DNA of 64,000 nt from an uncultured Pseudomonadales bacterium (GCA_964515115.1 CAZESB010000001.1:48292-112291), one strand, 5' to 3'; positions 2,607 to 29,907 are shown, counted from the stretch's first letter. Notes: generated by a model not told the origin, from the letters alone. Program-made: numbers and translations.

Positions 2607-3245
2607 TTAGCCGAAATTTTGTTTTTCGCTTCCCAGAAAGGTGGTCGCACCGTGGCCGGGATAGCAGAGGGTATTGTCGGGCAGCTCGAAAAGTTTCTGC
2701 AGTGAGGTGTGCAGAGCTTTAAAACTGGAGTAACTGTGATTGGTGCTGCCAAGGCCATTTTGAAAAAGAGTGTCGCCGGTGAAAAGAATTTGCCCATCGC
2801 TGACAGTCAAAGTGATTAAACAAATACTGCCTGGGGTGTGGCCGGGCGTTTCAATCACTCGCAGCTTTTGTTTACCAACAGGCAGAACATGATTTTCTTC
2901 CAGAAAAACGCTGGGGGTTGGCACCGGATCAACCGAGCGTTTAAGCCAGTGTTTAGCTCGACTCTGCACTGATTCAAGCAAAAAAAGGTCTTGCTGATTC
3001 ATCATCACTGGAATATTGAAGTTAAGCTGCACTTCCAGCGTACCCAAAATATGATCAAAATGCCCGTGAGTGAGAACGATCGCCAGAGGAGTAAGCTCAT
3101 TTTCCAGAATGGTAGTGGTGACGGTTTCACCGCTGTCGGCCGGATCAATAACCAGACACTCTCTGGTTTCACTGCAAAAGGCCAGATAGCAGTTAGTTTG
3201 TAACTCACCCAGCTCTAGGGTAATGACCTCGAGTTCGTTTGACAT
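2607..3245 (-). CDS. MBL-fold metallo-hydrolase (glyoxalase II-like)
   Basis: THGHFDHILG metal-binding motif (HxHxDH) and later His/Asp ligands. Confidence 0.65.
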   Translation of the reverse strand: MSNELEVITLELGELQTNCYLAFCSETRECLVIDPADSGETVTTTILENELTPLAIVLTHGHFDHILGTLEVQLNFNIPVMMNQQDLFLLESVQSRAKHWLKRSVDPVPTPSVFLEENHVLPVGKQKLRVIETPGHTPGSICLITLTVSDGQILFTGDTLFQNGLGSTNHSYSSFKALHTSLQKLFELPDNTLCYPGHGATTFLGSEKQNFG

Positions 3246-3306
3246 TTAGCCTTGTATTTCAGTATGATTTGATCATTAATATCCTATCACAGCAGGAGAA
3301 AGCCAA

Positions 3307-3594
3307 ATGCAACAAGACACGCCAGTTCCTACTTACGAAGCTCCCGAGTCTCCCGAAGCTCGGCCGACTGATCCGGTTGCCGCCAAAAAACTGCAACTGA
3401 AATATTTGCTGGTGATTGTGGCGCTTTTAGTGGTCGCAGCGGTGGCAGCTCTGGTTTTGAATAGCAATAATAACCAAGCAGAAGAAGAGCTACAGACAGA
3501 AGAAATGAACGAAGCTCTTGAATTGGAAATTGAGAACTCCGCTGGTTTTCCGCAAGAAGAGTTCGTCCCCTACGAAGAACTGCCGATCATGTAG
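3307..3594 (+). CDS. Small membrane-anchored hypothetical protein with acidic C-terminus
   Basis: Central hydrophobic helix LLVIVALLVVAAVAALVL; E-rich tail; no recognisable domain. Confidence 0.4.
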   Translation: MQQDTPVPTYEAPESPEARPTDPVAAKKLQLKYLLVIVALLVVAAVAALVLNSNNNQAEEELQTEEMNEALELEIENSAGFPQEEFVPYEELPIM

Positions 3595-4251
3595 TTAAAA
3601 CCAAAATTGAGTCAGCAAGGCAGTGCCGAAGTTGATGATCGGTAGAATGATTCTTCCTGCCAAAGAAACCCCTCCAAAAGGAAAAATCAGTAATATCAAT
3701 AGTATCGTGCCGTATTGTTGCATAAACTGTTCAAACTCGTAAGCAAATTGGCGGGGCAGAATTGCCAGCGCAATCTTGCTGCCATCCAGGGGATAAACGG
3801 GCAGGAGATTGAAAACAGCCAGCATAATATTGACTTGCACTGCCGCCAGCGCAATCAGCAGGAAAATATCAGGCAGAGCCACGGCAGTTTGCAGCAGGGC
3901 AAAAATAATTGAGATCACTGCCGCCAAGATAATATTTGATGCCGGCCCGGCCAAAGCAATCAGGGCAGTATCTCGCACCGGCTCCTTGAGGTTGTAGGGG
4001 TCGAAGGGAACCGGCTTGCCCCAACCAAAACCTACCAAAAGCAGAGTGATAGTGCCCAAAGGATCGAGATGAGCTCTGGGGTCGAGGGTGATGCGGTCAT
4101 TGTAACGAGGCGTGGGGTCGCCCAGATGATCAGCTACCCAGGCGTGAGCAAATTCGTGGATGGTGATAGCTACCAGCAACACTGCCAAAAAAATCACAAT
4201 GCCAATGAGAGTCCAAAGAGTGATGTTTCCAGATAAGAGAGTTAAAAGCAT
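3595..4251 (-). CDS. Membrane zinc metalloprotease, site-2 protease (M50) family
   Basis: HEFAHAW (HExxH inside a TM helix), multiple TM segments, LDG motif near the C-terminal part. Confidence 0.6.
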   Translation of the reverse strand: MLLTLLSGNITLWTLIGIVIFLAVLLVAITIHEFAHAWVADHLGDPTPRYNDRITLDPRAHLDPLGTITLLLVGFGWGKPVPFDPYNLKEPVRDTALIALAGPASNIILAAVISIIFALLQTAVALPDIFLLIALAAVQVNIMLAVFNLLPVYPLDGSKIALAILPRQFAYEFEQFMQQYGTILLILLIFPFGGVSLAGRIILPIINFGTALLTQFWF

Positions 4252-4370
4252 GGGTTCATTATATACTATTTATATGCTGCGAAGCTGACGTTAACCTTGC
4301 TTCCTCCGGGTTGTGTCATGGGTTGAAATGGCTTGAAAAGGTGAAGAAAAGTGGTATAATCACAATTCTT

Positions 4371-6171: not shown

Positions 6172-8220
6172 CTATTCTTCAATTTCCGCTTCACTCTCAT
6201 CAAGCAGTTTAGTCAACTGCGCTCGGGCATTTTCATAATCGGGCTTCAGCTCGAGAGCTTTTTCTTGGGCGCTCTTGGCTGCTTCAAGATCTTCCAGTCC
6301 CCAGGCCACCAGGCCGAGATTGTACCAAAGCTTGGCATCGGTGGGTGCTCTAGCAATGGCTTTTTCCAGTGCATCTTTGGCGTAGAGAAGAAAATCAGCA
6401 TCAATTTGCGACAAGGCAATAAAAATTCTGGCTCGAGTTTTATAAAAATTCAGGTGAGCCGAGTTTAGGGACAAAGACCGATCGCTAAACCTGATAGCTG
6501 CTTCCACCAACTCTGCCGACGCGGTGGCGTCACCGGCTTGAGCCTGAGCTACCGCCAGACTGGCGTAATTTTCAGCCAGTTCGTCATAGAAAAGCGCTTC
6601 GCCGGGCGATCTCTCTACCGCTTCTTGTAAATAGAGCAGACCCTCGCGGTTTTGCTGATTGTCAAGCAAAGATTTACCTAAATTAAAAGCCACATCTGCC
6701 TGGCGATAGTTGTAAATATTGCTCAACAGCATTAAAACTGCCAGGGTGGTAAGAGTAGCAGCAGCAAATTGCCAACCACTAGTGAACTCCGGTTTTTGCA
6801 CCGGCGCCTTTTCAATCTCTCTCACCAGAGCAGAGCTAGCCAGGAAAAAAAACATCAAAACAGTGACCATGACCGTGGAGAAGCCGAAAAAATTGGAAAC
6901 GCTCAAGGCCGCCAGTCCGGATAAGAGCCCTAGATGCAGCAAGCTATTCTTTCTGTAAATTTGAATAATGGCAGTCACAGCGAACCAGCCCAGCAATAAC
7001 AAATACGTTCCCAAGCCAAAAATGCCGGTGGTAGCCAGAAAATTTAGGAACTCATTGTGGGCTTTGTTATAAAGAAAGTCCCACTCGGAAACTAAGTTGT
7101 GTTCAATCGGCCGGTCCAAATAATAGCTGTAAGCGAAAGTTTCCACTCCCGAGCCAAAAAGCGGATACCGCTGCCAAACTTTCAAAGCTCCTGCCCAAAC
7201 AATTTTTCTGATTTCGCCCGAATCGGTGCCGCCTAGCTCCATTTGGTTGGCGGGCAGCTCCTCTACATCTCTGAGCTGGCTCGATTCTGAAGCCAAGAAA
7301 AGCTCTCGCACTGAAGGTGTGTAAGTAGTGCCAAATATGGCCGCAATAGTCACAAACAGCAGTAAAAACCCAAGAGTGTACTGGACCACCCGTCTGCTTA
7401 AATAGTCAGCCGGAGAAAAACGCGCCGACCGCGAAGAATTCTTCCAAGCATAAACCAAAGCACCGGCAAGAAAAACCAACATCCCCACCCCAAAACCCAG
7501 CAGCCCCGAGCGCGACTGAGTAAAAACCAGCGCCATAAACAGCAATCCGCCGGCAATTCCCAAAAACATTTTCTTAAAATAATTAGCCTTTTCTGTAATA
7601 GCCAGATAAATACTGACGGGAATTAAAGTAATAACGTAGGCCGCCAGCCAGTTTGGTTGTCCAAAACTGGCAAAAACCCGCTCTTGCACTTTTTGCACCC
7701 AGCAGTCCACACCAAAATTACTGCCTTTAGACAAAATCAAGCAACTGGCAGAATGGCCAAAATGTTCCAGAATAGCGTAGATTGAAACTAACACGCCTGA
7801 AGTAACCGCGGTTAGCAACAGTTGCTTGATTGCCCGGAGTGGCACGTTGCTGACAAAAGCGTAGTAAAGCAGATAATAGCTCACCAGTGACAGCAACCCG
7901 CCATGAAAGCGGCTGTAGTAACCAAGTACGGAAGTGCGCGGGTGCATTGAGAGCAGGGTAGAAATAACTTGTGAAACCAAAAACAGCAGCAGCGGTAAAT
8001 CCAAATATGTCCGCTGAAAAATCACTCTTTTTTCTTGAATCATCCGCCAAACCCAAGCTCCGCTTATCAAAACAGTCAGCGCGTAAACCAGGATCATTTT
8101 ATTGAACTCGAAAAGCTCTTCAGTTCTGAAAGAAAAATAAAGCGGCGTGGCAAAAAGCAAAAAGTGATACAGCACCAGGATAATTTTTTGCCACCTACTT
8201 AGTTGGCTCATCTGGCTCAT
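6172..8220 (-). CDS. O-antigen ligase (Wzy_C)-like polytopic membrane protein fused to C-terminal TPR repeats
   Basis: About 12 predicted TM helices in the N-terminal 470 aa with a Wzy-like layout; C-terminal 200 aa show TPR-like A/L/Y periodicity (LGKSLLDNQQNREGLLYLQEAVERSP...). Confidence 0.55.
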   Translation of the reverse strand: MSQMSQLSRWQKIILVLYHFLLFATPLYFSFRTEELFEFNKMILVYALTVLISGAWVWRMIQEKRVIFQRTYLDLPLLLFLVSQVISTLLSMHPRTSVLGYYSRFHGGLLSLVSYYLLYYAFVSNVPLRAIKQLLLTAVTSGVLVSIYAILEHFGHSASCLILSKGSNFGVDCWVQKVQERVFASFGQPNWLAAYVITLIPVSIYLAITEKANYFKKMFLGIAGGLLFMALVFTQSRSGLLGFGVGMLVFLAGALVYAWKNSSRSARFSPADYLSRRVVQYTLGFLLLFVTIAAIFGTTYTPSVRELFLASESSQLRDVEELPANQMELGGTDSGEIRKIVWAGALKVWQRYPLFGSGVETFAYSYYLDRPIEHNLVSEWDFLYNKAHNEFLNFLATTGIFGLGTYLLLLGWFAVTAIIQIYRKNSLLHLGLLSGLAALSVSNFFGFSTVMVTVLMFFFLASSALVREIEKAPVQKPEFTSGWQFAAATLTTLAVLMLLSNIYNYRQADVAFNLGKSLLDNQQNREGLLYLQEAVERSPGEALFYDELAENYASLAVAQAQAGDATASAELVEAAIRFSDRSLSLNSAHLNFYKTRARIFIALSQIDADFLLYAKDALEKAIARAPTDAKLWYNLGLVAWGLEDLEAAKSAQEKALELKPDYENARAQLTKLLDESEAEIEE

Positions 8221-11298: not shown

Positions 11299-13196
11299 TG
11301 AATCTTTTTAAACAACTATCGCCTAAAGTACTGCTTTTTTTCGCGGTGGCAGTGGCAGTTTTTTCACTTTTAATGTGGCGACTGGCGGATTTGCAGCTGA
11401 TTAACGGCCGTTCTTACTTGACGATGGCTGATGCCAACAGGTTGTTTACAGCCAGAGTGCCGGTGGAGCGAGGGGTTTTTCTTGATCGCTACGGTGATCC
11501 GCTGGTATACAACCAGCCGCGATATTACCGATTGACTGATCCTGAAGCTTTATTCAGCGACAAAGCAGAAATTTCCCGCGAGGAGGCTTTAATTGTCATG
11601 GCGTCTGGTAGCGAGAGTGTGGGTTATGAACTGGAAAGGGAGTTTGTTTTTCCAGCAGCCACGGCTCACGTGCTTGGTTATGCCAGCGCAGTTACTGCCG
11701 ATGAATTAAAACAAGATACCACTCTGCATATTGAAGACAAAACGGGCAAAATGGGTATGGAGCGAGTGTTTGATGAAGTGCTGCGAGGAGTGGCGGGCGC
11801 CAGTTTTTATGAAGTCAATGCTCTTGGGAAAAAACAGAGAAAAGTGGGCGATCGGGAAGGGATTCCCGGCTTGAATATTGACACCACTCTTGATCCATAT
11901 TTGTCGCAAATTGCTTTTGCAGCCATGGGTGCCAAGCGCGGCGCGGTAGTGATTCTTGACAGCGCTACTGGGGAGGTTTTGACTTTAGTCAGTACACCCA
12001 CTTATGATCCGCAGGCTTTAAGCACCAAGTACCTTGATCCTGAACTGGAAAAACAAAGACGGCAGCAGGTGAGTGACTTTTTCACCCATCCGCAGAAGTT
12101 GTTTTTCAACCGGGCGATTAGTGGGGTTTACCCGCCCGGGTCGGTTTTTAAAATTCTCACCGCTTTAGCCGGTCTGGATAGTGGAGCGATTGATGCCGGC
12201 AAGACCGTTGATGATACCGGTGTTCTCGAGATCGGGGAATATTCTTACGCCAACTGGTATTACACTCAGTACGGCAGGATTGATGGGCCGATTGCCTTAG
12301 TGCGCGCCCTGGCCAGGAGTAATGATATTTATTTTTATAAAGCGGCTGAGTGGACCGGCCCGCAGAAAATTGCCGATATGGCCAGGCTTTTTGGCTTAGG
12401 TCAGCCAACTGGAATTGAACTTTCAGGAGAAGCAGCCGGCTTGGTGCCAGATCCTGCCTGGAAAGAACGGGAATTGGGCGAGCGCTGGTATCTGGGCAAC
12501 ACTTTTCACTTTGGGATTGGTCAGGACAACTTGTTGGTCACGCCGCTGCAAGTCGCTCAGTATGTCCAGACTATTGCTAAGCGCGGCACGCAGTGCAGTC
12601 CGCATTTGGTCAAAACTAATCCGCTGGAGGTGGATGATGGCTTGGCCAGCCATTGTAGTGAGTTGGGAGTGGCTGAAGAAAATTTGGCACTGGTTTTGCA
12701 AGGGATGTTGGATGCCTGCAGTTTTGGTGGCACTGGTTTTCCTTTCTTTCCCCACAATCAAAGGTTTAGGCAAGAGGGACTGTCGCTGGTAGAGCAGCTT
12801 AATGAAGGGGCGGTGGCTTGTAAAACCGGTACTTCGGAGTTTGGCGGTGCTGATTCCAGGGGGTACAGGCAGACTCACGGCTGGTTTACCGCTATTGTTG
12901 GGATTAAGAAAGAAGATATTTTGCCGGCGGGCGGAGAAGATTTCCAGTCCGGAAACTGGGATGATGAAGCTCATTCATTTCGGGAGCGCTGGCTGAGCAG
13001 GGTTGATGAAGCTGGTTTCCCAGACAATTTGGTGATGGTGGCTTTGGTGGAAAGCGATGAAATTTCTCCTTATCGCGAAGGTTCAGCCGACGCAGCGCCG
13101 GTGATTAAAGAGATTGTTGACTGGATTTACGGCACTAATATCAGGGCAGAAACACTCTCCGAAGAGGAAATTAGGGAAGCCGGGCTAGCGGAGTAG
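11298..13196 (+). CDS. mrdA: Penicillin-binding protein 2 (peptidoglycan D,D-transpeptidase)
   Basis: N-terminal TM, SxxK in PPGSVFKIL, KTG in ACKTGTSEF; context mreBCD. Confidence 0.75.
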   Translation: MNLFKQLSPKVLLFFAVAVAVFSLLMWRLADLQLINGRSYLTMADANRLFTARVPVERGVFLDRYGDPLVYNQPRYYRLTDPEALFSDKAEISREEALIVMASGSESVGYELEREFVFPAATAHVLGYASAVTADELKQDTTLHIEDKTGKMGMERVFDEVLRGVAGASFYEVNALGKKQRKVGDREGIPGLNIDTTLDPYLSQIAFAAMGAKRGAVVILDSATGEVLTLVSTPTYDPQALSTKYLDPELEKQRRQQVSDFFTHPQKLFFNRAISGVYPPGSVFKILTALAGLDSGAIDAGKTVDDTGVLEIGEYSYANWYYTQYGRIDGPIALVRALARSNDIYFYKAAEWTGPQKIADMARLFGLGQPTGIELSGEAAGLVPDPAWKERELGERWYLGNTFHFGIGQDNLLVTPLQVAQYVQTIAKRGTQCSPHLVKTNPLEVDDGLASHCSELGVAEENLALVLQGMLDACSFGGTGFPFFPHNQRFRQEGLSLVEQLNEGAVACKTGTSEFGGADSRGYRQTHGWFTAIVGIKKEDILPAGGEDFQSGNWDDEAHSFRERWLSRVDEAGFPDNLVMVALVESDEISPYREGSADAAPVIKEIVDWIYGTNIRAETLSEEEIREAGLAE

Positions 13197-20576: not shown

Positions 20577-21611
20577 GTGGTCACACAAGATTTTGTGATT
20601 TCATGTACTCTGTTGCCTATGCCGATAGAACAGCTGTCCCTCACCAGCCTACTTGATACCAATGCCCATGCCGACAACCGGTCTGAAGCAGAAAAAATTC
20701 CTGATAGCCGGCTTAGTTTACTCAAAAAATTGACAGTCTTTTTCCGTCAGGATCGTCCTACCTTAGATACTTATCACTCACTTTACCCATCGCGGCTTTT
20801 TTGGCTGGTGTGGCACGAAGTTAAGGAACTAAACGGTCAGGACAAGTACGGCCTTTTTGCCCAAGAGGAATTTTTGGGCTTGTACCGACAGCAGGAACTG
20901 GCGGACATCATTATTTATTTGCAAGCGGTTTACGACCAATTGGCTGAAAATCCAGATGAAATTATCTTTCTTGATGAAGACTTGATTTTAGAGCGCGCTG
21001 CGACTATTGCTCAAGCACACCATATCGCCGTAGTTGACCTTGACCAACCGCTCAAAGAACCAATAGTTTTAAATCAAAACCAAGAAGCAACCTATAATCA
21101 ACTGAAAAATAATCTCAACTTTTGGGCTACAGTTTTAGATCCTGCTAAAGCTGATTTATGGAACGGACTGAGCCGCACCGAACAGGAGATGGCGCTAAAT
21201 GAAGTCATGTCCACGGCTTTTGTCATGCTGTATCTTTACGGCCTGAACCCACTCAAGGCCTCTCTCGAGAAAATTGCTCGCAATCTTTTGCGCTACGATC
21301 CTCAACTCCTGCAAGATAATTTTTCGGATATTTTGGGTGATCATAGTCTCAGTCAGGAAGAAAAGGACGGACTAATTAACGAGAGATATGAGGCGGCCAT
21401 CGAGGCTTGCAAAGTTCAATTTGATGGTCAGCTGGATAGCCAAGGTGAAAGACCGCAACTCGGAACTCAGCAATTTTATCTTGGCCCTCTGGCTCCGCCA
21501 TACTTGGATTTGTTGGCTTCAGAGAATCAAAAAATTCTCCAGCAAAACTCGCCAAACCATGATAGATTAGAAAGAAATGGTAATAATACTGGAGCCAGCA
21601 AAACTAGCTAA
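20577..21611 (+). CDS. Hypothetical protein (about 330-344 aa) embedded in the dut-tmk operon
   Basis: No recognisable motifs; GTG at 20577 or ATG at 20619; ends 6 nt before tmk. Confidence 0.4.
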   Translation: MVTQDFVISCTLLPMPIEQLSLTSLLDTNAHADNRSEAEKIPDSRLSLLKKLTVFFRQDRPTLDTYHSLYPSRLFWLVWHEVKELNGQDKYGLFAQEEFLGLYRQQELADIIIYLQAVYDQLAENPDEIIFLDEDLILERAATIAQAHHIAVVDLDQPLKEPIVLNQNQEATYNQLKNNLNFWATVLDPAKADLWNGLSRTEQEMALNEVMSTAFVMLYLYGLNPLKASLEKIARNLLRYDPQLLQDNFSDILGDHSLSQEEKDGLINERYEAAIEACKVQFDGQLDSQGERPQLGTQQFYLGPLAPPYLDLLASENQKILQQNSPNHDRLERNGNNTGASKTS

Positions 21612-22338: not shown

Positions 22339-22947
22339 ATGAAATTACCGCGTTCAGTGCAGCAGCTTATCGAGAGTTTTGAAAAATTACCGGGTGTCGG
22401 GCCAAAATCAGCCCAGCGCCTGGTTTTTTACTTGCTGCACAATCCCGATCATCAGCTGGAGGAGTTTGCCGAGCGATTATTGGCCCTCAAGAAAAATACC
22501 ATTCTTTGTAGCAGCTGCCACAACGTGAGTGAAACCGATCCCTGCAAGATTTGCTCGGATCAGACTCGCGACGATTCTTCGCTGTGTATTGTGGAACAAC
22601 CACTGGACGTTATTGCTATTGAAAACTCTGGGGCTTTTAAGGGGAAGTATCATGTTTTGCATGGAGCAATCGCGCCTCTGAACAATGTAGGGCCGGATCA
22701 GCTTTACTTGCATGATGTGACCAAAAGACTGAAAGGAGTGGTGGAGCTGATTATTGCCACCAACCCCACCATGGAGGGTGAAGCTACGGCGCTTTATATT
22801 AAAGAGTATATTCTTCAATCTGGGGTGGATAAGGTGGCAAACCTGGCTATTAGCCGGATTGGTCACGGTTTGCCGATTGGCGCCGATATCGAGTACGCCG
22901 ATGGCGTCACTCTTTCCAGGGCACTAGATGGCCGGCGAGAGATGTAA
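22339..22947 (+). CDS. recR: Recombination protein RecR
   Basis: HhH start LPGVGPKSAQRL, C4 zinc finger CSSCHNVSETDPCKIC, Toprim domain. Confidence 0.9.
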   Translation: MKLPRSVQQLIESFEKLPGVGPKSAQRLVFYLLHNPDHQLEEFAERLLALKKNTILCSSCHNVSETDPCKICSDQTRDDSSLCIVEQPLDVIAIENSGAFKGKYHVLHGAIAPLNNVGPDQLYLHDVTKRLKGVVELIIATNPTMEGEATALYIKEYILQSGVDKVANLAISRIGHGLPIGADIEYADGVTLSRALDGRREM

Positions 22948-22971: not shown

Positions 22972-24468
22972 ATGCCAAATGAGGGAGAAATAACTAGCCC
23001 CGTACAGCGTCTTAATGAAACAATGCTGCCAGTTCATATTCGGGCGGCTGGTGAATTCGGGATAAAGGATTCGGCAACTGAGGTACACACTTGGGAACCA
23101 AGTAGTTCTAATGAGATTTTACTTGAAAGCACACCTGTTCAGAAGCAAGAGCTTGTTGCCGCATTAACTGATCCAAAATTACACAAAATTTTTCAACACC
23201 AAGGCGAAACTTACATTGTTTTCAAAATTGCTGACCAATTATTTGTTATGCCATCTGGAAGAATACCAGAGTTACAACAGGCACTGCGACAGGAGCGGTC
23301 TGGGTCTAGTTTAGTGAAGAAGGTGGAGGGACTGGCAAGAAAAATCTTTACTCCCGACCAGGGACAGGAGCCTGACAACACTTCTCCTCAAGAACAAATC
23401 AGACTACCCGATAATTTCCCGGTGGGAGTAGCCTCTTTGGCTTCACCTCATCACCTTAATCATGATTCGTCTGCAACGCAATCACTAACTAATGCAGCTG
23501 GAATAAGAGTTCACCGATATTTGGTCATAGATGGTGCTGGTGGCACTGCGCAGATGGTAGCTCTGGCTGAGCGAGACCGAGCCATTCAAGCAAAAATGGA
23601 AGCGGTCCGCAAAAAAGTATGTTTGCATCGGGGTACTATAGTTGAAGCCTTGCTGGCGGCAGACAAGACTAGCAAAACCACTCCAGAACTTATAGATAAT
23701 GATGCCTCGGGGGGAGTGATAGCAGTTGAGTTTAATCCCAAAACAGGCAGGCTTGAATTTGCTTGGGTTGGTGATCCGGTCGCCATGACTTGGTCTCCCA
23801 CAGGTTATCGGCACAACAGAAGAGTAGACGCTCAATCTTCTACTCTTGAAGAACCAAACACTTTGCAAATGATTTCAGAGCAGCATAACCTGGCTTGGCA
23901 AATGAAAAAGTCTAATCCTGCTTTTGCGCCTACCATTGACCTAGATCTAGTGTCGCAAGCAAATCAAATTTATACTTCCGTAGGCGGTAGTAAGCAAAAA
24001 CCAGCCTTGAGACCGGAACAGATTGGTCAATTAAGCATACCGATTAACGAACTTGATGCTCGGTTTTTGCTGCTGATGTCGGACGGCGCTCGCCCAAATC
24101 AAATGATCGCTATGAATAATGAATCTGATCATCGATCAATGGAAGTCAGAAAACTAATTGGAAAATTTGTTGAAATATTCGCTCAGTCGCTCAAAGATCA
24201 ACAGGCTCAGGAAGATTTGTTAAACAGACTAACCAACATTGTTACAGACATGCCGTCTGCTTACTCAGTGGCGGTTGATCAATTATTAAGACATACCGGC
24301 CCGGCTAGTCAAACTGATCAGGTTGAACAAGTTGAGCAGACTGAACAAAAGCGAATAAGTTTGGAGATGACTGCACATTTAATTACCCACCTTGCCAGAA
24401 GAATTGGTGATCAAGATGACATCACCGTGATGATTATTGACCTGAATGAATACCGGCCAACTGCTTAG
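22972..24468 (+). CDS. Divergent PP2C-family phosphatase-like domain protein with unknown about 180 aa N-terminal domain
   Basis: Four PP2C-like motifs in order: YLVIDGAGGTA (xxDGxGG), AWVGDP (xVGDS), FLLLMSDGA (LLLCSDGL), GDQDDITVMIIDL (GGxDNITVxVVxL). Confidence 0.45.
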   Translation: MPNEGEITSPVQRLNETMLPVHIRAAGEFGIKDSATEVHTWEPSSSNEILLESTPVQKQELVAALTDPKLHKIFQHQGETYIVFKIADQLFVMPSGRIPELQQALRQERSGSSLVKKVEGLARKIFTPDQGQEPDNTSPQEQIRLPDNFPVGVASLASPHHLNHDSSATQSLTNAAGIRVHRYLVIDGAGGTAQMVALAERDRAIQAKMEAVRKKVCLHRGTIVEALLAADKTSKTTPELIDNDASGGVIAVEFNPKTGRLEFAWVGDPVAMTWSPTGYRHNRRVDAQSSTLEEPNTLQMISEQHNLAWQMKKSNPAFAPTIDLDLVSQANQIYTSVGGSKQKPALRPEQIGQLSIPINELDARFLLLMSDGARPNQMIAMNNESDHRSMEVRKLIGKFVEIFAQSLKDQQAQEDLLNRLTNIVTDMPSAYSVAVDQLLRHTGPASQTDQVEQVEQTEQKRISLEMTAHLITHLARRIGDQDDITVMIIDLNEYRPTA

Positions 24469-24572
24469 CGGCTCGGCAATTTGACAGTCCCGGGAGTAAC
24501 TTTTTAGCCCATTTATTTTCCTATAAATTTTGGTACGATGAAGGTGTCGATGAGATTGCGCTCATACAAAGT

Positions 24573-24609
24573 AAAACCACTCGGTCCTGCTTAGGAAGAG
24601 TGGTTTTTT
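24573..24609 (+). terminator. Intrinsic-terminator-like hairpin (10 bp stem AAAACCACTC/GAGTGGTTTT with inner TCCT/AGGA) followed by T6
   Basis: Read directly from sequence; lies 100 nt after the PP2C-like gene and 20 nt before the hpf start. Confidence 0.5.
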
Positions 24610-24629
24610 GTATCCAGAAAGGAGACTCA

Positions 24630-24968
24630 ATGACAGTGATTGTCGAGTCCAAGCGTTTAAAAGTGACCGAGGCTCTCCGAGCTTTTGTTGAGGAGCAAGC
24701 AAAAAAGCTGCTCAAATTGGGCAAAGGTGTGACCGGAGTTCGGGTACATCTGGAAACCATTGCTAAGAAAAGCAATGATCCCCAGGCTAACGCAGTCACT
24801 TTTCGGGTGGTTATTCCTGGCAAAGATGTGGTGGTGACCAAAACCGCGGAAAATATGTACACAGCCATTGCTTCGGCCGCGGATAGCGCCATTAGGCAAT
24901 TGAGGAAAAGATATGAAAAGCGCCGCACTCTGCGCCGTTCCAACGGTGAGAGTGGTAGTGGCGAATGA
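24630..24968 (+). CDS. hpf: Ribosome hibernation promoting factor (RaiA/HPF family)
   Basis: MTVIVESKRLKVTEALRAFVEEQ...VRVHLE...AVTFRVVIPGKDVVVTKTAENMYTAIASAADSAIRQLRK matches the short HPF fold; GGAGA RBS. Confidence 0.8.
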   Translation: MTVIVESKRLKVTEALRAFVEEQAKKLLKLGKGVTGVRVHLETIAKKSNDPQANAVTFRVVIPGKDVVVTKTAENMYTAIASAADSAIRQLRKRYEKRRTLRRSNGESGSGE

Positions 24969-25020
24969 TTAAGAGTGTTCCTGCTTGATTTACTCTTGGC
25001 TCATCTAGTATGGTAGAAAC

Positions 25021-25494
25021 ATGACTAATCCAGCAGATGATCAAACTAGTGGTTCGCAGCAAAATTTTCAGCAGACCCAACCGGCTCAGCAAGCTCAGCA
25101 AGACCCGCTGGCGGCGCTTGAGGAGTTATTGAAGCAAACGCAGCAAAATCAACAGTCGCCGCAGAGTGCTCAACCAAACCCACAGCAGCTAGCTGAAGCT
25201 GATGATGAGGTTGGCGGCCTGGGTTCGGACATGGGGACGGCTGACGCTGAGGTTCAGGCAGCAGCTCAGGCTCAAGCCCAAAAACAAGCGGAGTACGAAG
25301 CCATGGCTGCTCGCAGCCAGGCAGAAACGCAGGAACAGCTTGAGGTGCAAAAGCAGGCTTTGGAGGAAATTAAAACTATGCCTGAATATCAAGCCAGAGT
25401 CCAACAAAATCAACAGGAAGCCGAGAAGCAAGAGGAAGAAGCTAATCTGGCTGATGGTTTGCAAATTAGGCAGTTGAAACACGATAAAGTTTAG
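25021..25494 (+). CDS. Q/A/E-rich low-complexity hypothetical protein
   Basis: Gln-rich N-terminal region, AQAQAQKQAEYEAMAAR helical repeats; no domain. Confidence 0.4.
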   Translation: MTNPADDQTSGSQQNFQQTQPAQQAQQDPLAALEELLKQTQQNQQSPQSAQPNPQQLAEADDEVGGLGSDMGTADAEVQAAAQAQAQKQAEYEAMAARSQAETQEQLEVQKQALEEIKTMPEYQARVQQNQQEAEKQEEEANLADGLQIRQLKHDKV

Positions 25495-25522
25495 GGAAAT
25501 TTAGAGGAAATAAGGAATAGCT

Positions 25523-26197
25523 ATGTCTGCACCTAAAGCTGGAGGGCCGGGCGCTCGGGTGAGAGCGGGCGGCGGCTTCAATCAGTTTGCTGACGAACTC
25601 GGTGGTGAACACCTCCAGTCTTCGGCGATGCAGCAGGCCATGCAGCAAAAAGCCGCCGCCCAAAAAACTGCTGATCCCCGCGCCGGTCAAACCTCCCAAG
25701 CCAAAATGCAGCAACAGGCTTTAGCCCAGCAGTTGCAGCAGCAACAGGAGCGCGCCGGCGGCCAGCCTCAAGCTCCCCGCGAAGTTGGTACCATTCCTGA
25801 AGAATTTAAGCGCATGGGCCAAGATGCTTTCCAGGAACTCAAATCATTTTTTTCTTTAAATACTTGGCTGGGAGTGAAACCGGAAACAGACGATCCTGAA
25901 GAAGTAGCCAAGCGCAAAAAACTGCACGAGCGCTGGCAGAACCTGACTGAAGAACAACAAGCGGTTGCCAAGCGCCAGTACCAGGAAGAACTCGAGCGCA
26001 AGCGGGCGGAGGAAGAAGAAGCGCAGCAAAAAAAGCAACTGGAAGAACAGAAAAAAGAGCGTGGCTTACCAATGCCCGCCAGCCCGCAAAAAGGTCCGAT
26101 TGGCCCCGGCACAGCCGGTAAATCTAAAAAGCAAGACGCGGTTCAGCGTCTGCAACAAAGCCGCCAGCAACTGAGTGGTCCAAGCAGCCTGAATTAA
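25523..26197 (+). CDS. Gly-rich N-terminus / Q-rich / KE-rich coiled-coil hypothetical protein
   Basis: GGPGARVRAGGGF, long Q tract, EELERKRAEEEEAQQKKQLEEQKKE; no domain. Confidence 0.4.
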   Translation: MSAPKAGGPGARVRAGGGFNQFADELGGEHLQSSAMQQAMQQKAAAQKTADPRAGQTSQAKMQQQALAQQLQQQQERAGGQPQAPREVGTIPEEFKRMGQDAFQELKSFFSLNTWLGVKPETDDPEEVAKRKKLHERWQNLTEEQQAVAKRQYQEELERKRAEEEEAQQKKQLEEQKKERGLPMPASPQKGPIGPGTAGKSKKQDAVQRLQQSRQQLSGPSSLN

Positions 26198-26257
26198 GTC
26201 CGCTTGCAATCAACTCGCCATCTACTCTAAACTGGAATTAATATTCTCGAAAGTTTT

Positions 26258-26491
26258 ATGACAAATTCACTTTCACCACAACTCGCGACCATTTTAGAAC
26301 GTTTTGGCAAGGAACTACAACAATATCTCGAAGCCGAAATTAAACGCCAAACAGCGGTGCAACTGACTGAACTTCCTGAGTCTTATTCCGCAAATCAAAG
26401 TTTCAAAAGTCAAGATTTTAATGAAGCACTCTCAGAATTATCAACTTTAAGAGATTCGATAATTACTGACCAAATCGCCGACTTAAATTAG
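26258..26491 (+). CDS. Small hypothetical protein (77 aa), paralog of the 29539-29907 N-terminus
   Basis: SPQLATILERFGKELQQYLEAEIKRQ matches ASQLQQILDDFGLDLQNYIREEVARQ of the downstream ORF. Confidence 0.4.
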   Translation: MTNSLSPQLATILERFGKELQQYLEAEIKRQTAVQLTELPESYSANQSFKSQDFNEALSELSTLRDSIITDQIADLN

Positions 26492-26569
26492 TACAAATTA
26501 TCTGGTCATGATAGAATATTGATACTTTTGAACTGAATAAAGAACAAATATAAGTAAAGGAAATTAGAC

Positions 26570-27673
26570 ATGAACGAGATTACCGTCAATCCCCAAGATA
26601 TCCAAGATATTAATGCTGTTGACACCGCAGCGCCAGAAACAAACCAACAGCAAGTGGATCAATCTACCCCCCCCCATCTAGATGAGCCTTCACTGTCTAG
26701 ATCAGAGATGCTCAGAGAGCAAAGATTAGATTTTGCTGCCGGAAAACAAGAAAAGCGAGCTGAAAGGCAAACGCAGGCGCAAGAAAGAGGGGCGCAAAGA
26801 AGAGCGGCGCTAAAAGAAAAGTTTGACCGAGCCTCCAATATTTTTACTACCCAAGTCAATGTCTTAAAAGAAAAAGGTCGTGCTGCTTATGATTTTGCTG
26901 CCGAAAAAGGCGCAGCAGCTTACACTAAAACAACTGAAGCGGTTGGTGCTGTCAGTCAAGAGATAAGCGGTAGCGCACCGGCACGAGCTCTAGATCGAGT
27001 TTTGCAAGTTGGAGTTGAGGGATTTATGTTTGCTCGTGAACAAGCTGCTAGGGCAGATGAAGCTATTGCGCAAAAACTGGATACCGGGATGGGTAACTTG
27101 GTTGGCAAATTCGAGGCTGGGAAGCTTAACTTTCAAGCTGCTAAACATGAAAGAAACCAAGCTCGTTTAGAAGCAGAGCAAACTAAAGCCGCCGCACGCC
27201 TTAAAGATCTAGAAGTTCAATTTAAGGAACACACCCGAAAGATTATTGACTCCGCTCGAAAAGAGCCAGAAACCAAGCGTTATTTTAATCTGGCTAAAAA
27301 TTTGCGCAATATGGCTGGCGAATCGGCTTTGCCTGATTCTAGAGATCAGTTGCTCGGTATGGCCGATCAATTAGAGAACCTTGGGAATGAGGCAGTGAAA
27401 GCAGCAGTAGCGCCGCAGCTGGAAAATTTAAGAAGCGAAACCATAGATATTTACAAGCAATTGAAAGAAGATCTAGACTTTTACACTGAACAAGTTCAGG
27501 CGCTTGAAAGTAGAGCAGCGGAACTCCGCACTGAAGCCCAAGCACGCTTAGGCAATGGCCAAGGTTTGCGGACTTTGAGGCAGGGGGTAGTGGGTATGTT
27601 CACCGACGCGCGCGGGACTACTCAAGGAGCATTTCGTGGTTTGGTAAATAGAGCAAAAGCAAGATTTAGTTAA
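26570..27673 (+). CDS. Alpha-helical / coiled-coil hypothetical protein (apolipoprotein- or phasin-like composition)
   Basis: Amphipathic A/K/E/Q repeats (AAEKGAAAYTKTTEAVGAV..., LEAEQTKAAARLKDLEVQFKE); no catalytic motifs. Confidence 0.4.
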   Translation: MNEITVNPQDIQDINAVDTAAPETNQQQVDQSTPPHLDEPSLSRSEMLREQRLDFAAGKQEKRAERQTQAQERGAQRRAALKEKFDRASNIFTTQVNVLKEKGRAAYDFAAEKGAAAYTKTTEAVGAVSQEISGSAPARALDRVLQVGVEGFMFAREQAARADEAIAQKLDTGMGNLVGKFEAGKLNFQAAKHERNQARLEAEQTKAAARLKDLEVQFKEHTRKIIDSARKEPETKRYFNLAKNLRNMAGESALPDSRDQLLGMADQLENLGNEAVKAAVAPQLENLRSETIDIYKQLKEDLDFYTEQVQALESRAAELRTEAQARLGNGQGLRTLRQGVVGMFTDARGTTQGAFRGLVNRAKARFS

Positions 27674-27699
27674 AGCAAAAATTAACCCAAAGGAATTAC

Positions 27700-28008
27700 A
27701 TGACCAAACAAGACTTACACCAAATGCTGGCAGAAATCGAACTAACCGATGACGTGCGTCAAAACGTTACGGAGGTTATTAACTCCTTTGCCAATGAAGA
27801 ATTAACTGAGGACGAAGTAGCCGAACTGGTGGAATATCTGGATTTGGCTTCAGAAAATGAGGTGGTTTTAGCCGGTGCGCTCAAAGAAGCCGCCGATCTG
27901 GCCGATCAATACGTGACTGACATGGATCGCAATCAAGAAGATTTGACAACCAACACTATTGGCAAAATGCACGACACGTTGGTGCAAGCTACCACTTTGG
28001 CTGATTAA
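27700..28008 (+). CDS. Small highly acidic hypothetical protein
   Basis: 102 aa, D/E-rich (ELTEDEVAELVEYLDLASENE); no domain. Confidence 0.35.
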   Translation: MTKQDLHQMLAEIELTDDVRQNVTEVINSFANEELTEDEVAELVEYLDLASENEVVLAGALKEAADLADQYVTDMDRNQEDLTTNTIGKMHDTLVQATTLAD

Positions 28009-28054
28009 CTCAACTCCTAACCCCAAACTCACCAAGATTTGCTAGGATATAACT

Positions 28055-29506
28055 ATGAGTTCTATGCGTTTATACAACACCATGAGCCGGCAAGTTGAAG
28101 AGTTTGTGCCCTCAAACCCGCCTGAGGTCAAGCTCTACGCCTGTGGTTTTACCGTTTACGATTACACTCACCTCGGTCATTTGCGTAAATATACCATGGA
28201 CGATATTTTGGTGCGCACCCTCGAACATCAGGGTTACGAAGTTAAGTTTGTGCAAAATGTCACCGATGTTGGCCATCTCACTTCTGACGCTGATACCGGC
28301 GAGGATAAACTGGAAAAAGGCGCCAAAAAATATGGTAAATCGGCTTGGGATATTGCTCGGGAGTTTGAGGATTACTTTTGGTACAGCATGGATTTGATGG
28401 GCAATAAGCGCCCTGACATCAGCAGCCGAGCCACGGAGCACATCGAGGCTCAACTTGATTTAGTCAAAACCCTGGAAGAAAAAGGCTACACTTACGAAAT
28501 TCCCGGCGACGGCATTTATTTTGACACCGCCAAATTGACTGATTATGGCCAGCTAGCCCGTCTCAATCCGGCCAGCCAGCAGGAAGGTGCCAGAATTGGG
28601 GTGGTTGAAGGCAAGCGCCAGCCCACCGATTTTGCTCTTTGGAAATATGAGCGTCCGGGTGAGAACCGCGCCATGGTGTGGCCCAGTCCGTGGCACGAGC
28701 GCAGTTTTCCGGGCTGGCACGTGGAATGTAGCGCTATGGCCATGCAATATTTAGGCGAGCAGCTTGACATTCACACTGGCGGTATTGATCACATTCCGGT
28801 CCATCATCCTAATGAAATTGCTCAGTCGGAGGCGGCTACAGGCAAGAAACCCTTTGTCCGTTACTGGGCTCATCATAATTTTTTGCTGATAGAAGGCGAA
28901 AAAATGAGCAAATCGCTCGGCAACTTTTTTACTGTAGATGACGTCATCAATCGCGGCTTTGATCCTCGCGCCCTCAGGTTGCTTTTCTTGACTGCACATT
29001 ACCGCAGCGAAATGAATTTCACTTGGGAAAATTTGGCTGGCATGCAGAAAAGTTATGAACGCTTGCTGCGCCAGACAAAAGAGCTAGGCGAGCTTTCGGT
29101 AGCTTTACCTTTAGCAGGGTTGAACGAGATGAGTGAGGCGGCCCGAGCGCTTCATGATCAGTTTTTCGCAGCCATGAATGACGATCTGGATACACCGACA
29201 GCAGTGGCAGTAATGTGGCAGGCGCTCAAAACGGCAATTCCGGCCCAAGAAAAGCTGGCGCTCTTGCAAGTTTTTGACAACATTTTGCAACTTGATCTGG
29301 CCAATGCTGAGGCTCATTTGACTGAAACCGAAATTACTCCGGCCCAGTTGCCGGAAGAGGTGCAGCAACTTCTGGCTGAGCGTCAACAAGCCAGGGAAAA
29401 TGGAGCTTGGGATCAAGCTGACAGCCTCCGCGACCAACTCAAACAGCTGGGTTACGAAGTTACCGACATTGCTTCAGGACAGAAAATCAGACAAATTACT
29501 ACTTGA
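28055..29506 (+). CDS. cysS: Cysteinyl-tRNA synthetase
   Basis: HIGH-type motif TVYDYTHLGHLR, KMSKS motif KMSKSLGN, Zn-binding Cys residues. Confidence 0.9.
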   Translation: MSSMRLYNTMSRQVEEFVPSNPPEVKLYACGFTVYDYTHLGHLRKYTMDDILVRTLEHQGYEVKFVQNVTDVGHLTSDADTGEDKLEKGAKKYGKSAWDIAREFEDYFWYSMDLMGNKRPDISSRATEHIEAQLDLVKTLEEKGYTYEIPGDGIYFDTAKLTDYGQLARLNPASQQEGARIGVVEGKRQPTDFALWKYERPGENRAMVWPSPWHERSFPGWHVECSAMAMQYLGEQLDIHTGGIDHIPVHHPNEIAQSEAATGKKPFVRYWAHHNFLLIEGEKMSKSLGNFFTVDDVINRGFDPRALRLLFLTAHYRSEMNFTWENLAGMQKSYERLLRQTKELGELSVALPLAGLNEMSEAARALHDQFFAAMNDDLDTPTAVAVMWQALKTAIPAQEKLALLQVFDNILQLDLANAEAHLTETEITPAQLPEEVQQLLAERQQARENGAWDQADSLRDQLKQLGYEVTDIASGQKIRQITT

Positions 29507-29538: not shown

Positions 29539-29907
29539 ATGCCAAACGACCCTGCCTCTCAGCTTCAGCAGATTCTTGATGATTTTGGTCTTGACCTGCA
29601 AAACTATATCCGCGAAGAGGTGGCGCGCCAGCTTGGTGAGCGAAAAGTGGAAGTCGCAGGCATTGAAACTCCGCCGGAACAGCCAGTCGAGTGGCAGCAA
29701 CCCGAGCAGCCAGAGCAGCAGTCGCCTCAATCGGAACAGCAGCCGGAAATCGAGCAGTTCCAGCCTGAACAGTATCAAGCCGATATTAACGACTATCAGC
29801 CGACCGAGGGAGCCAATAACATCAATAATACCAGCTCTAGCGACATGTCTGATTACGACAGAATGTTCGGCGTCCTGGCGAGGATAAAAAACAGACACGC
29901 ATCATAA
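29539..29907 (+). CDS. Hypothetical protein with conserved N-terminal approximately 30-aa motif and E/Q/P-rich tail
   Basis: N-terminal motif paralogous to 26258-26491; PEQPEQQSPQSEQQPEIEQFQPEQ low complexity. Confidence 0.4.
   Translation: MPNDPASQLQQILDDFGLDLQNYIREEVARQLGERKVEVAGIETPPEQPVEWQQPEQPEQQSPQSEQQPEIEQFQPEQYQADINDYQPTEGANNINNTSSSDMSDYDRMFGVLARIKNRHAS

Follow-up and report, generated by a model that had tools for sequence, protein, structure and literature searches.

We examined the genes downstream of hpf, which encodes a ribosome hibernation factor, in a 64,000-nucleotide stretch of DNA recorded as deriving from an uncultured Pseudomonadales bacterium (GCA_964515115.1, CAZESB010000001.1:48292-112291; hereafter the window). 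A first-pass annotation had described hpf and the five consecutive open reading frames (ORFs) behind it, here called A to E, as one co-regulated stress or dormancy set. We found that this run is composite and not one module. Judged from sequence, A and B are a conserved pair confined to one clade of the Patescibacteria or candidate phyla radiation (CPR), and the pair usually lies directly behind hpf. C, D and E occupy a variable slot and are orphans at the level of the genus; these three of the five ORFs should therefore not carry an annotation as dormancy genes. The evolutionary and anatomical part of this explanation is well supported; the explanation as a whole, with hpf-A-B as a three-gene unit and C, D and E as separate cargo, falls just short of an even call. 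That the row of low-complexity ORFs behind hpf does not make up a single module is a useful negative result. The conserved, often translationally coupled and apparently disordered pair behind hpf is a concrete and cheaply testable candidate for a lineage-specific hibernation accessory, and a hairpin in the hpf leader is a candidate attenuator controlling that pair.

The gene run between recR and cysS

All genes from recR to cysS, including a 498-amino-acid (aa) orphan, hpf and ORFs A to E, lie on the + strand. The features are listed below with their positions in the window, protein lengths and isoelectric points (pI); L001 is the genome of a close relative.

22339-22947, + strand: recR, the usual upstream anchor (Pfam RecR domains on identical contigs)
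22972-24468, + strand: 498-aa orphan, not part of the module (no family match)
24630-24968, + strand: hpf, short-type HPF/YfiA/RaiA (112 aa, pI 10.4; PF02482, TIGR00741)
25021-25494, + strand: A, acidic Q/A/E-rich protein of a CPR-clade-specific family (157 aa, pI 4.2; hidden Markov model (HMM) of orthologues)
25523-26197, + strand: B, basic protein of hydrophilin-like composition, of a CPR-clade-specific family (224 aa, pI 9.4; profile)
26258-26491, + strand: C, doubtful and species-specific gene (77 aa; absent from L001)
26570-27673, + strand: D, predicted all-helical, genus-specific and fast-evolving protein (367 aa; AlphaFold2)
27700-28008, + strand: E, very acidic, genus-specific protein (102 aa, net charge -20, pI 4.05)
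28055-29506, + strand: cysS, the usual downstream anchor (tRNA-synt_1e domains on identical contigs)

The intergenic gaps from hpf to A through E to cysS are 52, 28, 60, 78, 26 and 46 nucleotides (nt). The five ORFs 3' of hpf, on the same strand, separated by short gaps and without known domains, all exist as the first-pass annotation described them, and the compositions it gave were reproduced on recomputation. Its start of hpf at position 24573 falls in the leader and not in the gene, the likely start being the ATG at 24630. A to E lack a hydrophobic segment (maximum Kyte-Doolittle 19-mer score below 0.9), and comparison of the five with Pfam, NCBIfam, PHROGs, PADLOC and PDB sequences gave nothing above noise. 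In the literature and full-text searches on hibernation in CPR/Patescibacteria, these genes are nowhere described. A, B, D and E are real genes, each with an orthologue in a related genome and a nonsynonymous divergence (dN) far under the synonymous divergence (dS), and GGA/AGG-type ribosome-binding sites are present upstream of all four.

The longest ORF of hpf spans 24600-24968; the likely start codon is preceded by AGGAG 8 nt upstream, and gene callers give a 112-aa product for hpf on identical contigs. The protein belongs to the HPF/YfiA/RaiA (Ribosomal_S30AE) family, matching PF02482 with an E value of 5e-17 and 62.8 bits (cut-off 23.7) and TIGR00741 with 51.2 bits (cut-off 40.9). It is not a long HPF, the C-terminal dimerisation domain of that type (Ribosom_S30AE_C) being absent from hpf, A, B, seven A orthologues and 31 B homologues.

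Gene order of hpf, A and B across genomes

The gene order was compared in 12 distinct contexts of B: the window, L001, L003, L010, L011, L013, L016, L017, L018, L019, L021 and L023, with L001 and L015 representing the same genome. A lies directly upstream of B in all 12, with a gap of at most 3 nt or a 4-nt overlap in eight of them. Directly upstream of A, on the same strand, hpf was found in 10 of the 12 contexts, covering B identities down to a profile E value of 3.5e-17, and no insertion separates hpf, A and B in any of those 10 genomes. The linkage to hpf suggested by the first-pass annotation, for which gene order in related genomes was the check, is thus borne out for A and B (hpf-A-B unbroken in 10/12 contexts) and fails for C, D and E, for which relatives beyond one sister genome are lacking. 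The idea of a single five-gene stress or dormancy set is likewise largely contradicted for C to E by their phyletic distribution, and what survives of it is an A-B pair that usually accompanies hpf.

The flanks of the unit are less constant. In 10 contexts recR precedes hpf or A-B, and in 10 of the 12 cysS lies 3' of B at a distance of 0-4 genes. The junction between recR and hpf is interrupted by the 498-aa orphan in the window, by oppositely oriented sigma-factor genes in L003 and L013, and by a PIN/MazE pair in L011; in L001 the 498-aa orphan is missing and hpf directly follows recR. Elsewhere this junction holds sigma factors, the PIN/MazE pair or orphans of 400-479 aa, all unrelated to the 498-aa ORF. 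In L011 a divergent gene lies 5' of the hpf-A-B trio and a convergent one 3' of it, and in L017 a clean terminator is present 3' of B.

Those B homologues that carry a name belong to 'Candidatus Pacebacteria' or 'Patescibacteria group' bacteria. Beyond the genus, CysS is closest, at 37-41% identity, to proteins of a Spechtbacterales (CPR) bacterium and of an Anaerolineae metagenome-assembled genome, and by its gene content the genome is a small CPR one. The closest genomes, L001 (CAZWKL010000002.1) and L003 (CAZYNM010000008.1), are titled 'uncultured Pseudomonadales bacterium'; these titles are probably mislabels, because both the gene content and the affiliation of the B homologues point to Patescibacteria/CPR.

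Properties of A and B

A consists of 24% Q, 16% A, 11% E and 4% G, and alignment of its orthologues revealed the conserved motifs DPLAxLEELL and TPxYQARVQQ and a C-terminal DGxEIRQ(L/I)xxTK(I/L). The protein is predicted to be mostly disordered with a heptad-periodic helix (heptad z=4.3). A word-indexed search returned one weak match (P0066); since A is too biased for an indexed search, its homology was shown with an HMM of positional orthologues. Built from nine of these, the HMM matched only A among 741 ORFs of the window (E 3.7e-18), and it also recovered the ORF 5' of B in L019 (E 3e-20) and L023 (E 2e-18). A shares 72% identity with its L001 orthologue (dN 0.12, dS saturated), and its acidity is conserved, with a pI of 4.1-5.1 in 11/11 orthologues.

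B is composed of 9% G, 17% Q and 19% K+E, with a grand average of hydropathy (GRAVY) of -1.24. Its conserved N-terminus, RPRPGGGFN...EHLDExAMQQAMQQK, is followed by a variable Q/A linker, a core of the form FFSLNTWLGIxPxTxDPEE...LTEEQQAVA, a long E/K/R-rich helix, and a C-terminus reading MPSSPQKGPxGP...SKKQ...LQQDR. A word-indexed search found 64 homologues, those named being Patescibacteria, and a profile of 31 homologues identified 143 cluster representatives among 1.84 billion proteins, nearly all of 180-240 aa. Among these 143, no informative Rosetta-stone fusion between B and HPF or another domain came to light, and the single long member (P0131) looks like a frameshift read-through. B is 93% identical to its L001 orthologue (dN/dS 0.08) and has a pI above 9 in 9/11 orthologues. 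Both A and B appear to be under purifying selection.

AlphaFold2 modeling of B from the 31-sequence alignment gave a mean predicted local distance difference test score (pLDDT) of 64 and a predicted template-modeling score of 0.24, with isolated helices only; the helix at residues 125-181 reached a pLDDT of 91, and a Foldseek search with the model found no fold match. The heptad score of B is low (z=0.7), and its E/K/R-rich helix is more like a single alpha-helix. Coiled-coil character, one of several traits that the first-pass annotation gave for the run, is predicted for A and for D (z=3.4) and not for B. Disorder, too, is predicted for part of the run: a charge-hydropathy plot puts A, B and E, with every A and B orthologue examined, on the disordered side and C and D on the folded side.

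The composition of the five proteins was assessed with the hydrophilin rule (Gly >6% and mean hydrophilicity >1), which is said to go back to Garay-Arroyo et al. 2000. B conforms to this rule in all 11 orthologues (Gly at least 6%, GRAVY -1.0 to -1.25). It is the only one of the five to do so, as A (G 4%), C (GRAVY -0.48), D (-0.73) and E (-0.38) fail, and the hydrophilin-type composition attributed to the set thus applies to B and does not extend to A, C, D and E.

When the 31 B homologues were compared with Pfam, scattered sub-threshold matches to FabD_helical_ins (5), Metal_resist (2) and DUF3106 (1) were obtained. The segment LTEEQQ of B (25940-25990, residues ~140-155) resembles the LTXXQ motif of CpxP/Spy-type chaperones; membership in that group was rejected because the Pfam hits are inconsistent and a signal peptide is absent. 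The RPRPGGGFN segment (25523-25600, residues 10-25) is superficially like the RPRP cores of proline-rich ribosome-targeting peptides, a likeness that is unsubstantiated.

C, D and E in the slot between B and cysS

The interval between B and cysS has the following positions.

B-cysS slot: window 26198-28054; L003 4950-9970; L010 5631-6762; L013 5635-6787; L016 1530-3476; L019 4779-6354

Outside the window's genus it holds a SIMPL gene, a 132-134-aa membrane-anchored protein, a PIN gene, a convergent 67-aa gene or nothing, and also a 387-aa protein in which a DGRHR (ParB/Srx-like) motif was read by eye. The SIMPL gene (PF04402) recurs in the slot of five genomes (L003, L010, L013, L016 and L019), and in L010 and L013 it follows the conserved 132-134-aa protein, whose membrane anchor is C-terminal. 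The window's genus has C, D and E in place of the SIMPL and membrane-protein genes. No relationship was found when C, D, E, the 498-aa orphan and ORF F, a gene downstream of cysS, were compared with the slot genes of the other loci. C, D and E are genus-specific cargo in a hypervariable slot outside the hpf-A-B unit.

The first ~50 nt past the B stop codon (window 26198-26250; L001 8345-8395) are near-identical in the window and L001 and contain a weak TTGCAA-N18-TAAACT promoter-like element. Beyond this element the two sequences diverge fully, into C in the window and the D orthologue in L001, and the slot genes may have a separate promoter.

C may not be a gene. It is missing in L001, in which 66 nt separate B from the D orthologue, and a gene caller passed over it on one of the identical contigs (L006). 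Its similarity to ORF F is confined to the N-terminal ~35 aa of both (E 3e-4). C was also considered as a split-off N-terminus of the L001 D orthologue, a relationship dropped for want of any similarity between the two.

D is rich in A (15%), R (9%) and E (9%). A word-indexed search of 5.8 billion proteins returned D itself only, comparison of D with PDB sequences was empty, and a pattern scan of metagenome contigs with the D/D' alignment recovered only L015, which is the L001 genome. Between the window and L001, identity is 89-97% for recR, hpf, B, E, cysS and purA; for D it is 29% overall, with residues 143-340 at 44% and unalignable termini. Its dN of 0.64 and dN/dS of 0.33 stand against dN/dS values of 0.03-0.08 for its neighbours and dN values of 0.02-0.05 for the flanking genes. 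AlphaFold2, run on the single sequence, predicted an all-helical structure in which residues 190-320, inside the conserved core, have a pLDDT of 80-93. The heptad signal of D (z=3.4) has a contrast of 0.82 at residues 288-325. From these models, D would be an antiparallel coiled-coil or helical-bundle protein.

The likeness of D to late embryogenesis abundant (LEA) proteins, phasins or apolipoproteins, as put forward in the first-pass annotation, did not hold up. The corresponding Pfam profiles were unmatched, as were any for perilipin-like amphipathic-helix coat proteins, and the analogy fails for D because its periodicity is of the heptad and not the 11-residue type (11/3 periodicity z=-0.2), its lag-11 and lag-22 identity being barely over expectation. 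Across A to F, the 11/3-residue periodicity ranged from z=-1.0 to 1.5, and neither protein-level tandem repeats nor LEA Pfam matches at E <= 1 were found. For D as a PspA/IM30/Vipp1 protein, there was no PF04012 match and no such protein among the top 50 Foldseek matches in PDB. Chemoreceptor-like, toxin-like and PspA-like identities of D were dropped, as Foldseek against PDB gave generic helical bundles only (E >= 0.017).

E contains 25% D+E residues and gave no family or PDB match. It is 96% identical to its L001 orthologue (dN/dS 0.03) and always lies immediately 3' of D. D and E would form a separate pair, consisting of a fast-diverging coiled-coil protein and a conserved small acidic partner.

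A hairpin in the hpf leader

A terminator-like hairpin with a T-run lies ahead of hpf, and counterparts were located in seven other loci.

24575-24612 (window), + strand: terminator-like hairpin and T-run, candidate attenuator (AAAACCACTC...GAGTGGTTTTTTGT; RNAfold -15.6 kcal/mol)
Leader hairpin in other loci: L001 ~6743-6795; L003 ~3559-3598; L010 ~4141-4179; L011 ~4255-4282
Leader hairpin in other loci: L013 ~4115-4153; L017 ~3236-3284; L021 ~3041-3077

In the window the hairpin ends ~10 nt 5' of the hpf Shine-Dalgarno sequence. A hairpin with a T-run is present within 160 nt upstream of hpf in 8/9 loci, compared with a background of 0.10 per 160 nt of + strand. It is kept in all three loci with a divergent upstream gene (L003, L011 and L013), where it cannot be the terminator of that gene, which lies on the other strand. 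The hairpin appears to sit inside the hpf leader, because a -10-like box is found upstream of it (leader region in the window 24520-24612). This arrangement is typical of a transcription attenuator, suggesting attenuation of hpf-A-B, possibly of an undescribed type. Transcription of hpf-A-B would probably begin at a promoter ~100 nt upstream of hpf and pass through the hairpin acting as attenuator.

No Rfam family was assigned to the leader; its best match at a permissive threshold was PyrR, which scored 18 bits where the gathering score is 54 (E 2.4). In the whole window only two tRNAs reach the Rfam gathering score, with no riboswitch, T-box or PyrR leader among the matches. An ATG mini-ORF begins just past the -10-like box and has its stop codon in the hairpin loop in 4/8 loci, reading through the hairpin in 3/8. 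A leader-peptide role of this mini-ORF was considered and is unproven. Terminator prediction on the + strand of the window gave none between hpf and cysS.

Proposed function of hpf-A-B and alternative explanations

We propose that hpf-A-B is a conserved three-gene unit of one Microgenomates/'Pacebacteria'-type CPR clade, lying in a synteny block of the form recR-hpf-A-B-(variable slot)-cysS. The acidic A and the basic B would be cytoplasmic, largely disordered or helical proteins that are made together, their genes often being translationally coupled, and would most likely form a heteromeric complex. This complex may act in the same pathway as the short HPF, as a clade-specific accessory of ribosome silencing or storage; in a possible division of labour, the basic disordered arms of B would touch rRNA or ribosomes, and A would be an acidic partner or regulator. 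Gene context makes a complex of A and B acting with HPF on ribosomes plausible, if somewhat doubtful. A fuller version is unlikely as it stands: A-B would be a new CPR-clade-specific two-protein accessory of the short HPF, an acidic-basic and largely disordered complex on hibernating ribosomes, which it would tether, coat or condense, or in which it would plug a functional site through the RPRPGGGFN and basic C-terminal motifs of B. In that version, the pair would be induced with hpf through a new leader attenuator and, in these ultrasmall bacteria, would fill the role that RMF or long-HPF dimerisation has elsewhere. Patescibacteria/CPR, whose ribosomes are unusual, are thought to live largely in low-activity states. 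HPF-linked genes of CPR are of some interest because, in the only Saccharibacteria species examined by transposon sequencing, growth unexpectedly depends on RaiA, a member of the HPF family (PMC11665869, review).

Several observations weigh against a role of A-B in hibernation. In L019, A-B has no adjacent hpf, and ~200 nt of non-coding sequence and an HD-domain gene on the other strand lie upstream; L023 has recR-A-B with a recR-A gap of 12 nt and no hpf; and short contigs carry two very distant B-like proteins on their own. These cases make A-B the strict evolutionary unit and hpf its usual but non-obligate neighbour. With A-B, recR and cysS show about as much synteny as hpf does, which may reflect housekeeping gene order in a reduced genome, and because of this similar degree of synteny, linkage alone does not prove a dormancy role. 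Co-transcription in the window would not be specific to hpf-A-B, given the lack of a predicted + strand terminator from hpf to cysS. A and B showed no sequence, profile or fold link to ribosome-binding or hibernation proteins. Short HPF/RaiA-type factors are able to silence 70S ribosomes without a partner, and so no partner would be needed here. The main alternative, less likely than not, is that A-B is a conserved partner pair unrelated to hibernation, for example a nucleoid, DNA-repair-associated or division-scaffold pair, in a frozen recR-hpf-A-B-cysS order. The two contexts without hpf would fit this explanation, as would recR upstream in 10 contexts, cysS downstream in 10/12, and the lack of anything that ties A or B to ribosome-binding proteins. 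What speaks for the hpf-A-B unit instead is that insertions split recR from hpf and B from cysS repeatedly and, in 10 genomes, never hpf from A or A from B, and that the trio in L011 is an isolated transcription unit; a DNA-binding or division domain was likewise undetected in A and B.

The proposal that the five proteins together make up a jointly regulated dormancy set of protectants, of hydrophilin, LEA, phasin or condensate type, draws on the shared strand, the short gaps and the lack of a predicted + strand terminator from hpf to cysS, on the predicted disorder of A, B and E, and on the hydrophilin composition of B in all its orthologues. It is nonetheless very improbable, as C, D and E are missing from the other hpf-A-B genomes, save D and E in one sister genome, and their slot is filled elsewhere by SIMPL, the 132-aa membrane protein, the ParB-like protein or PIN. 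Moreover, A, C, D and E fail the hydrophilin rule, LEA, phasin and apolipoprotein profiles are unmatched, and D has heptad and not 11-mer periodicity with a confidently predicted folded helical core. That the low-complexity ORFs are chance open frames in biased sequence is barely credible: the species-specific, short C, which has no clear Shine-Dalgarno sequence and was skipped by one gene call, would suit this idea, as would the long antisense ORFs that overlap A and B, which are expected in biased sequence, but it is already refuted for A, B, D and E by orthologues with dN far below dS, and the 143 representatives of the B family, the specificity of the A HMM and the GGA/AGG sites before the four genes add to this. 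A further suggestion, compatible with the hpf-A-B unit and decidedly unlikely, is that D and E are a conflict or host-interaction pair of an epibiont-type bacterium, with D as a rapidly diversifying helical effector or surface protein and E as a small acidic chaperone or immunity-like partner, the two having come by chance to lie in the variable slot beside the hpf operon. The divergence of D (29% identity against 89-97% for the flanks, dN 0.64 against 0.02-0.05, with only residues 143-340 alignable), the 96% identity of E and its constant adjacency to D, and the hypervariability of the slot would agree with such a pair, and the weak top Foldseek matches of D include alpha-pore-forming toxin, Tc-toxin and LXG-type helical bundles. 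Those fold matches are, however, non-significant (E >= 0.017) and generic for long helices, D has neither a signal peptide nor a hydrophobic segment, PADLOC and PHROGs gave no matches, and a dN/dS of 0.33, taken from only two genomes, reflects relaxed constraint and not demonstrated positive selection.

Neighbouring genes

ORF F (29539-29907, + strand), between cysS and purA, encodes a Q/P/E-rich protein of 122 aa with a pI of 4.1, which the charge-hydropathy plot places among the disordered proteins. The L001 orthologue of F (11461-11850) shares 68% identity with it (dN/dS 0.18), and in other genomes a PspC-domain gene occupies the position of F. Further upstream, a 344-aa ORF without a recorded Pfam match (20577-21611, + strand) lies between dut and tmk, a position conserved in L010, L011 and L017 (311-325 aa). 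In this place holB, for DNA polymerase III delta', often adjoins tmk.

Comparison with known systems

D has long paired helices and heptads, as do the chemoreceptor cytoplasmic domain, the SMC arm, the AhlB/XaxB alpha-pore-forming toxins and LXG domains. It differs from these helical-bundle proteins in having no family match and no transmembrane or hydrophobic head segment, and its best Foldseek match has an E value of 0.017, with template-modeling scores of 0.2-0.3 and a root-mean-square deviation >9 Å.

B resembles hydrophilins and LEA proteins in being highly hydrophilic, in having at least 6% Gly in all orthologues and in appearing disordered. Unlike in those proteins, 11-mer repeats are absent and LEA Pfam profiles are unmatched, and A, C, D and E fail the composition rule. 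The conserved linear motifs of B and its obligate acidic partner gene point to specific binding and not to bulk protection.

The arrangement is also reminiscent of RMF with the short HPF of gammaproteobacteria, and of the C-terminal domain of the long HPF, in that small additional proteins, encoded alongside a short HPF, could provide what is missing from it. As with RMF, the A-B partner would be clade-restricted, and B is basic as RMF is. At 55 aa, RMF is folded and helical, and its gene does not adjoin hpf. A and B, by contrast, are 105-224 aa long and mostly disordered, with ribosome binding only putative, and neither resembles RMF or the C-terminal domain of the long HPF in sequence, profile or fold; the RMF profile gave no Pfam or NCBIfam match in A to E at E <= 1.

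Disordered dormancy factors that plug ribosomal sites include the eukaryotic Dap1b/Dapl1 and Stm1/SERBP1, and among bacteria the recent, clade-restricted Balon. Searches of PDB by sequence and fold returned nothing, and the comparison with these factors is purely one of analogy. The likeness to Dap1b/Dapl1, Stm1/SERBP1 and Balon lies in short conserved motifs within a disordered basic protein that stands beside a canonical hibernation factor, and, by analogy, the RPRPGGGFN N-terminus and basic C-terminus of B may be of the general Dap1b/Stm1 type.

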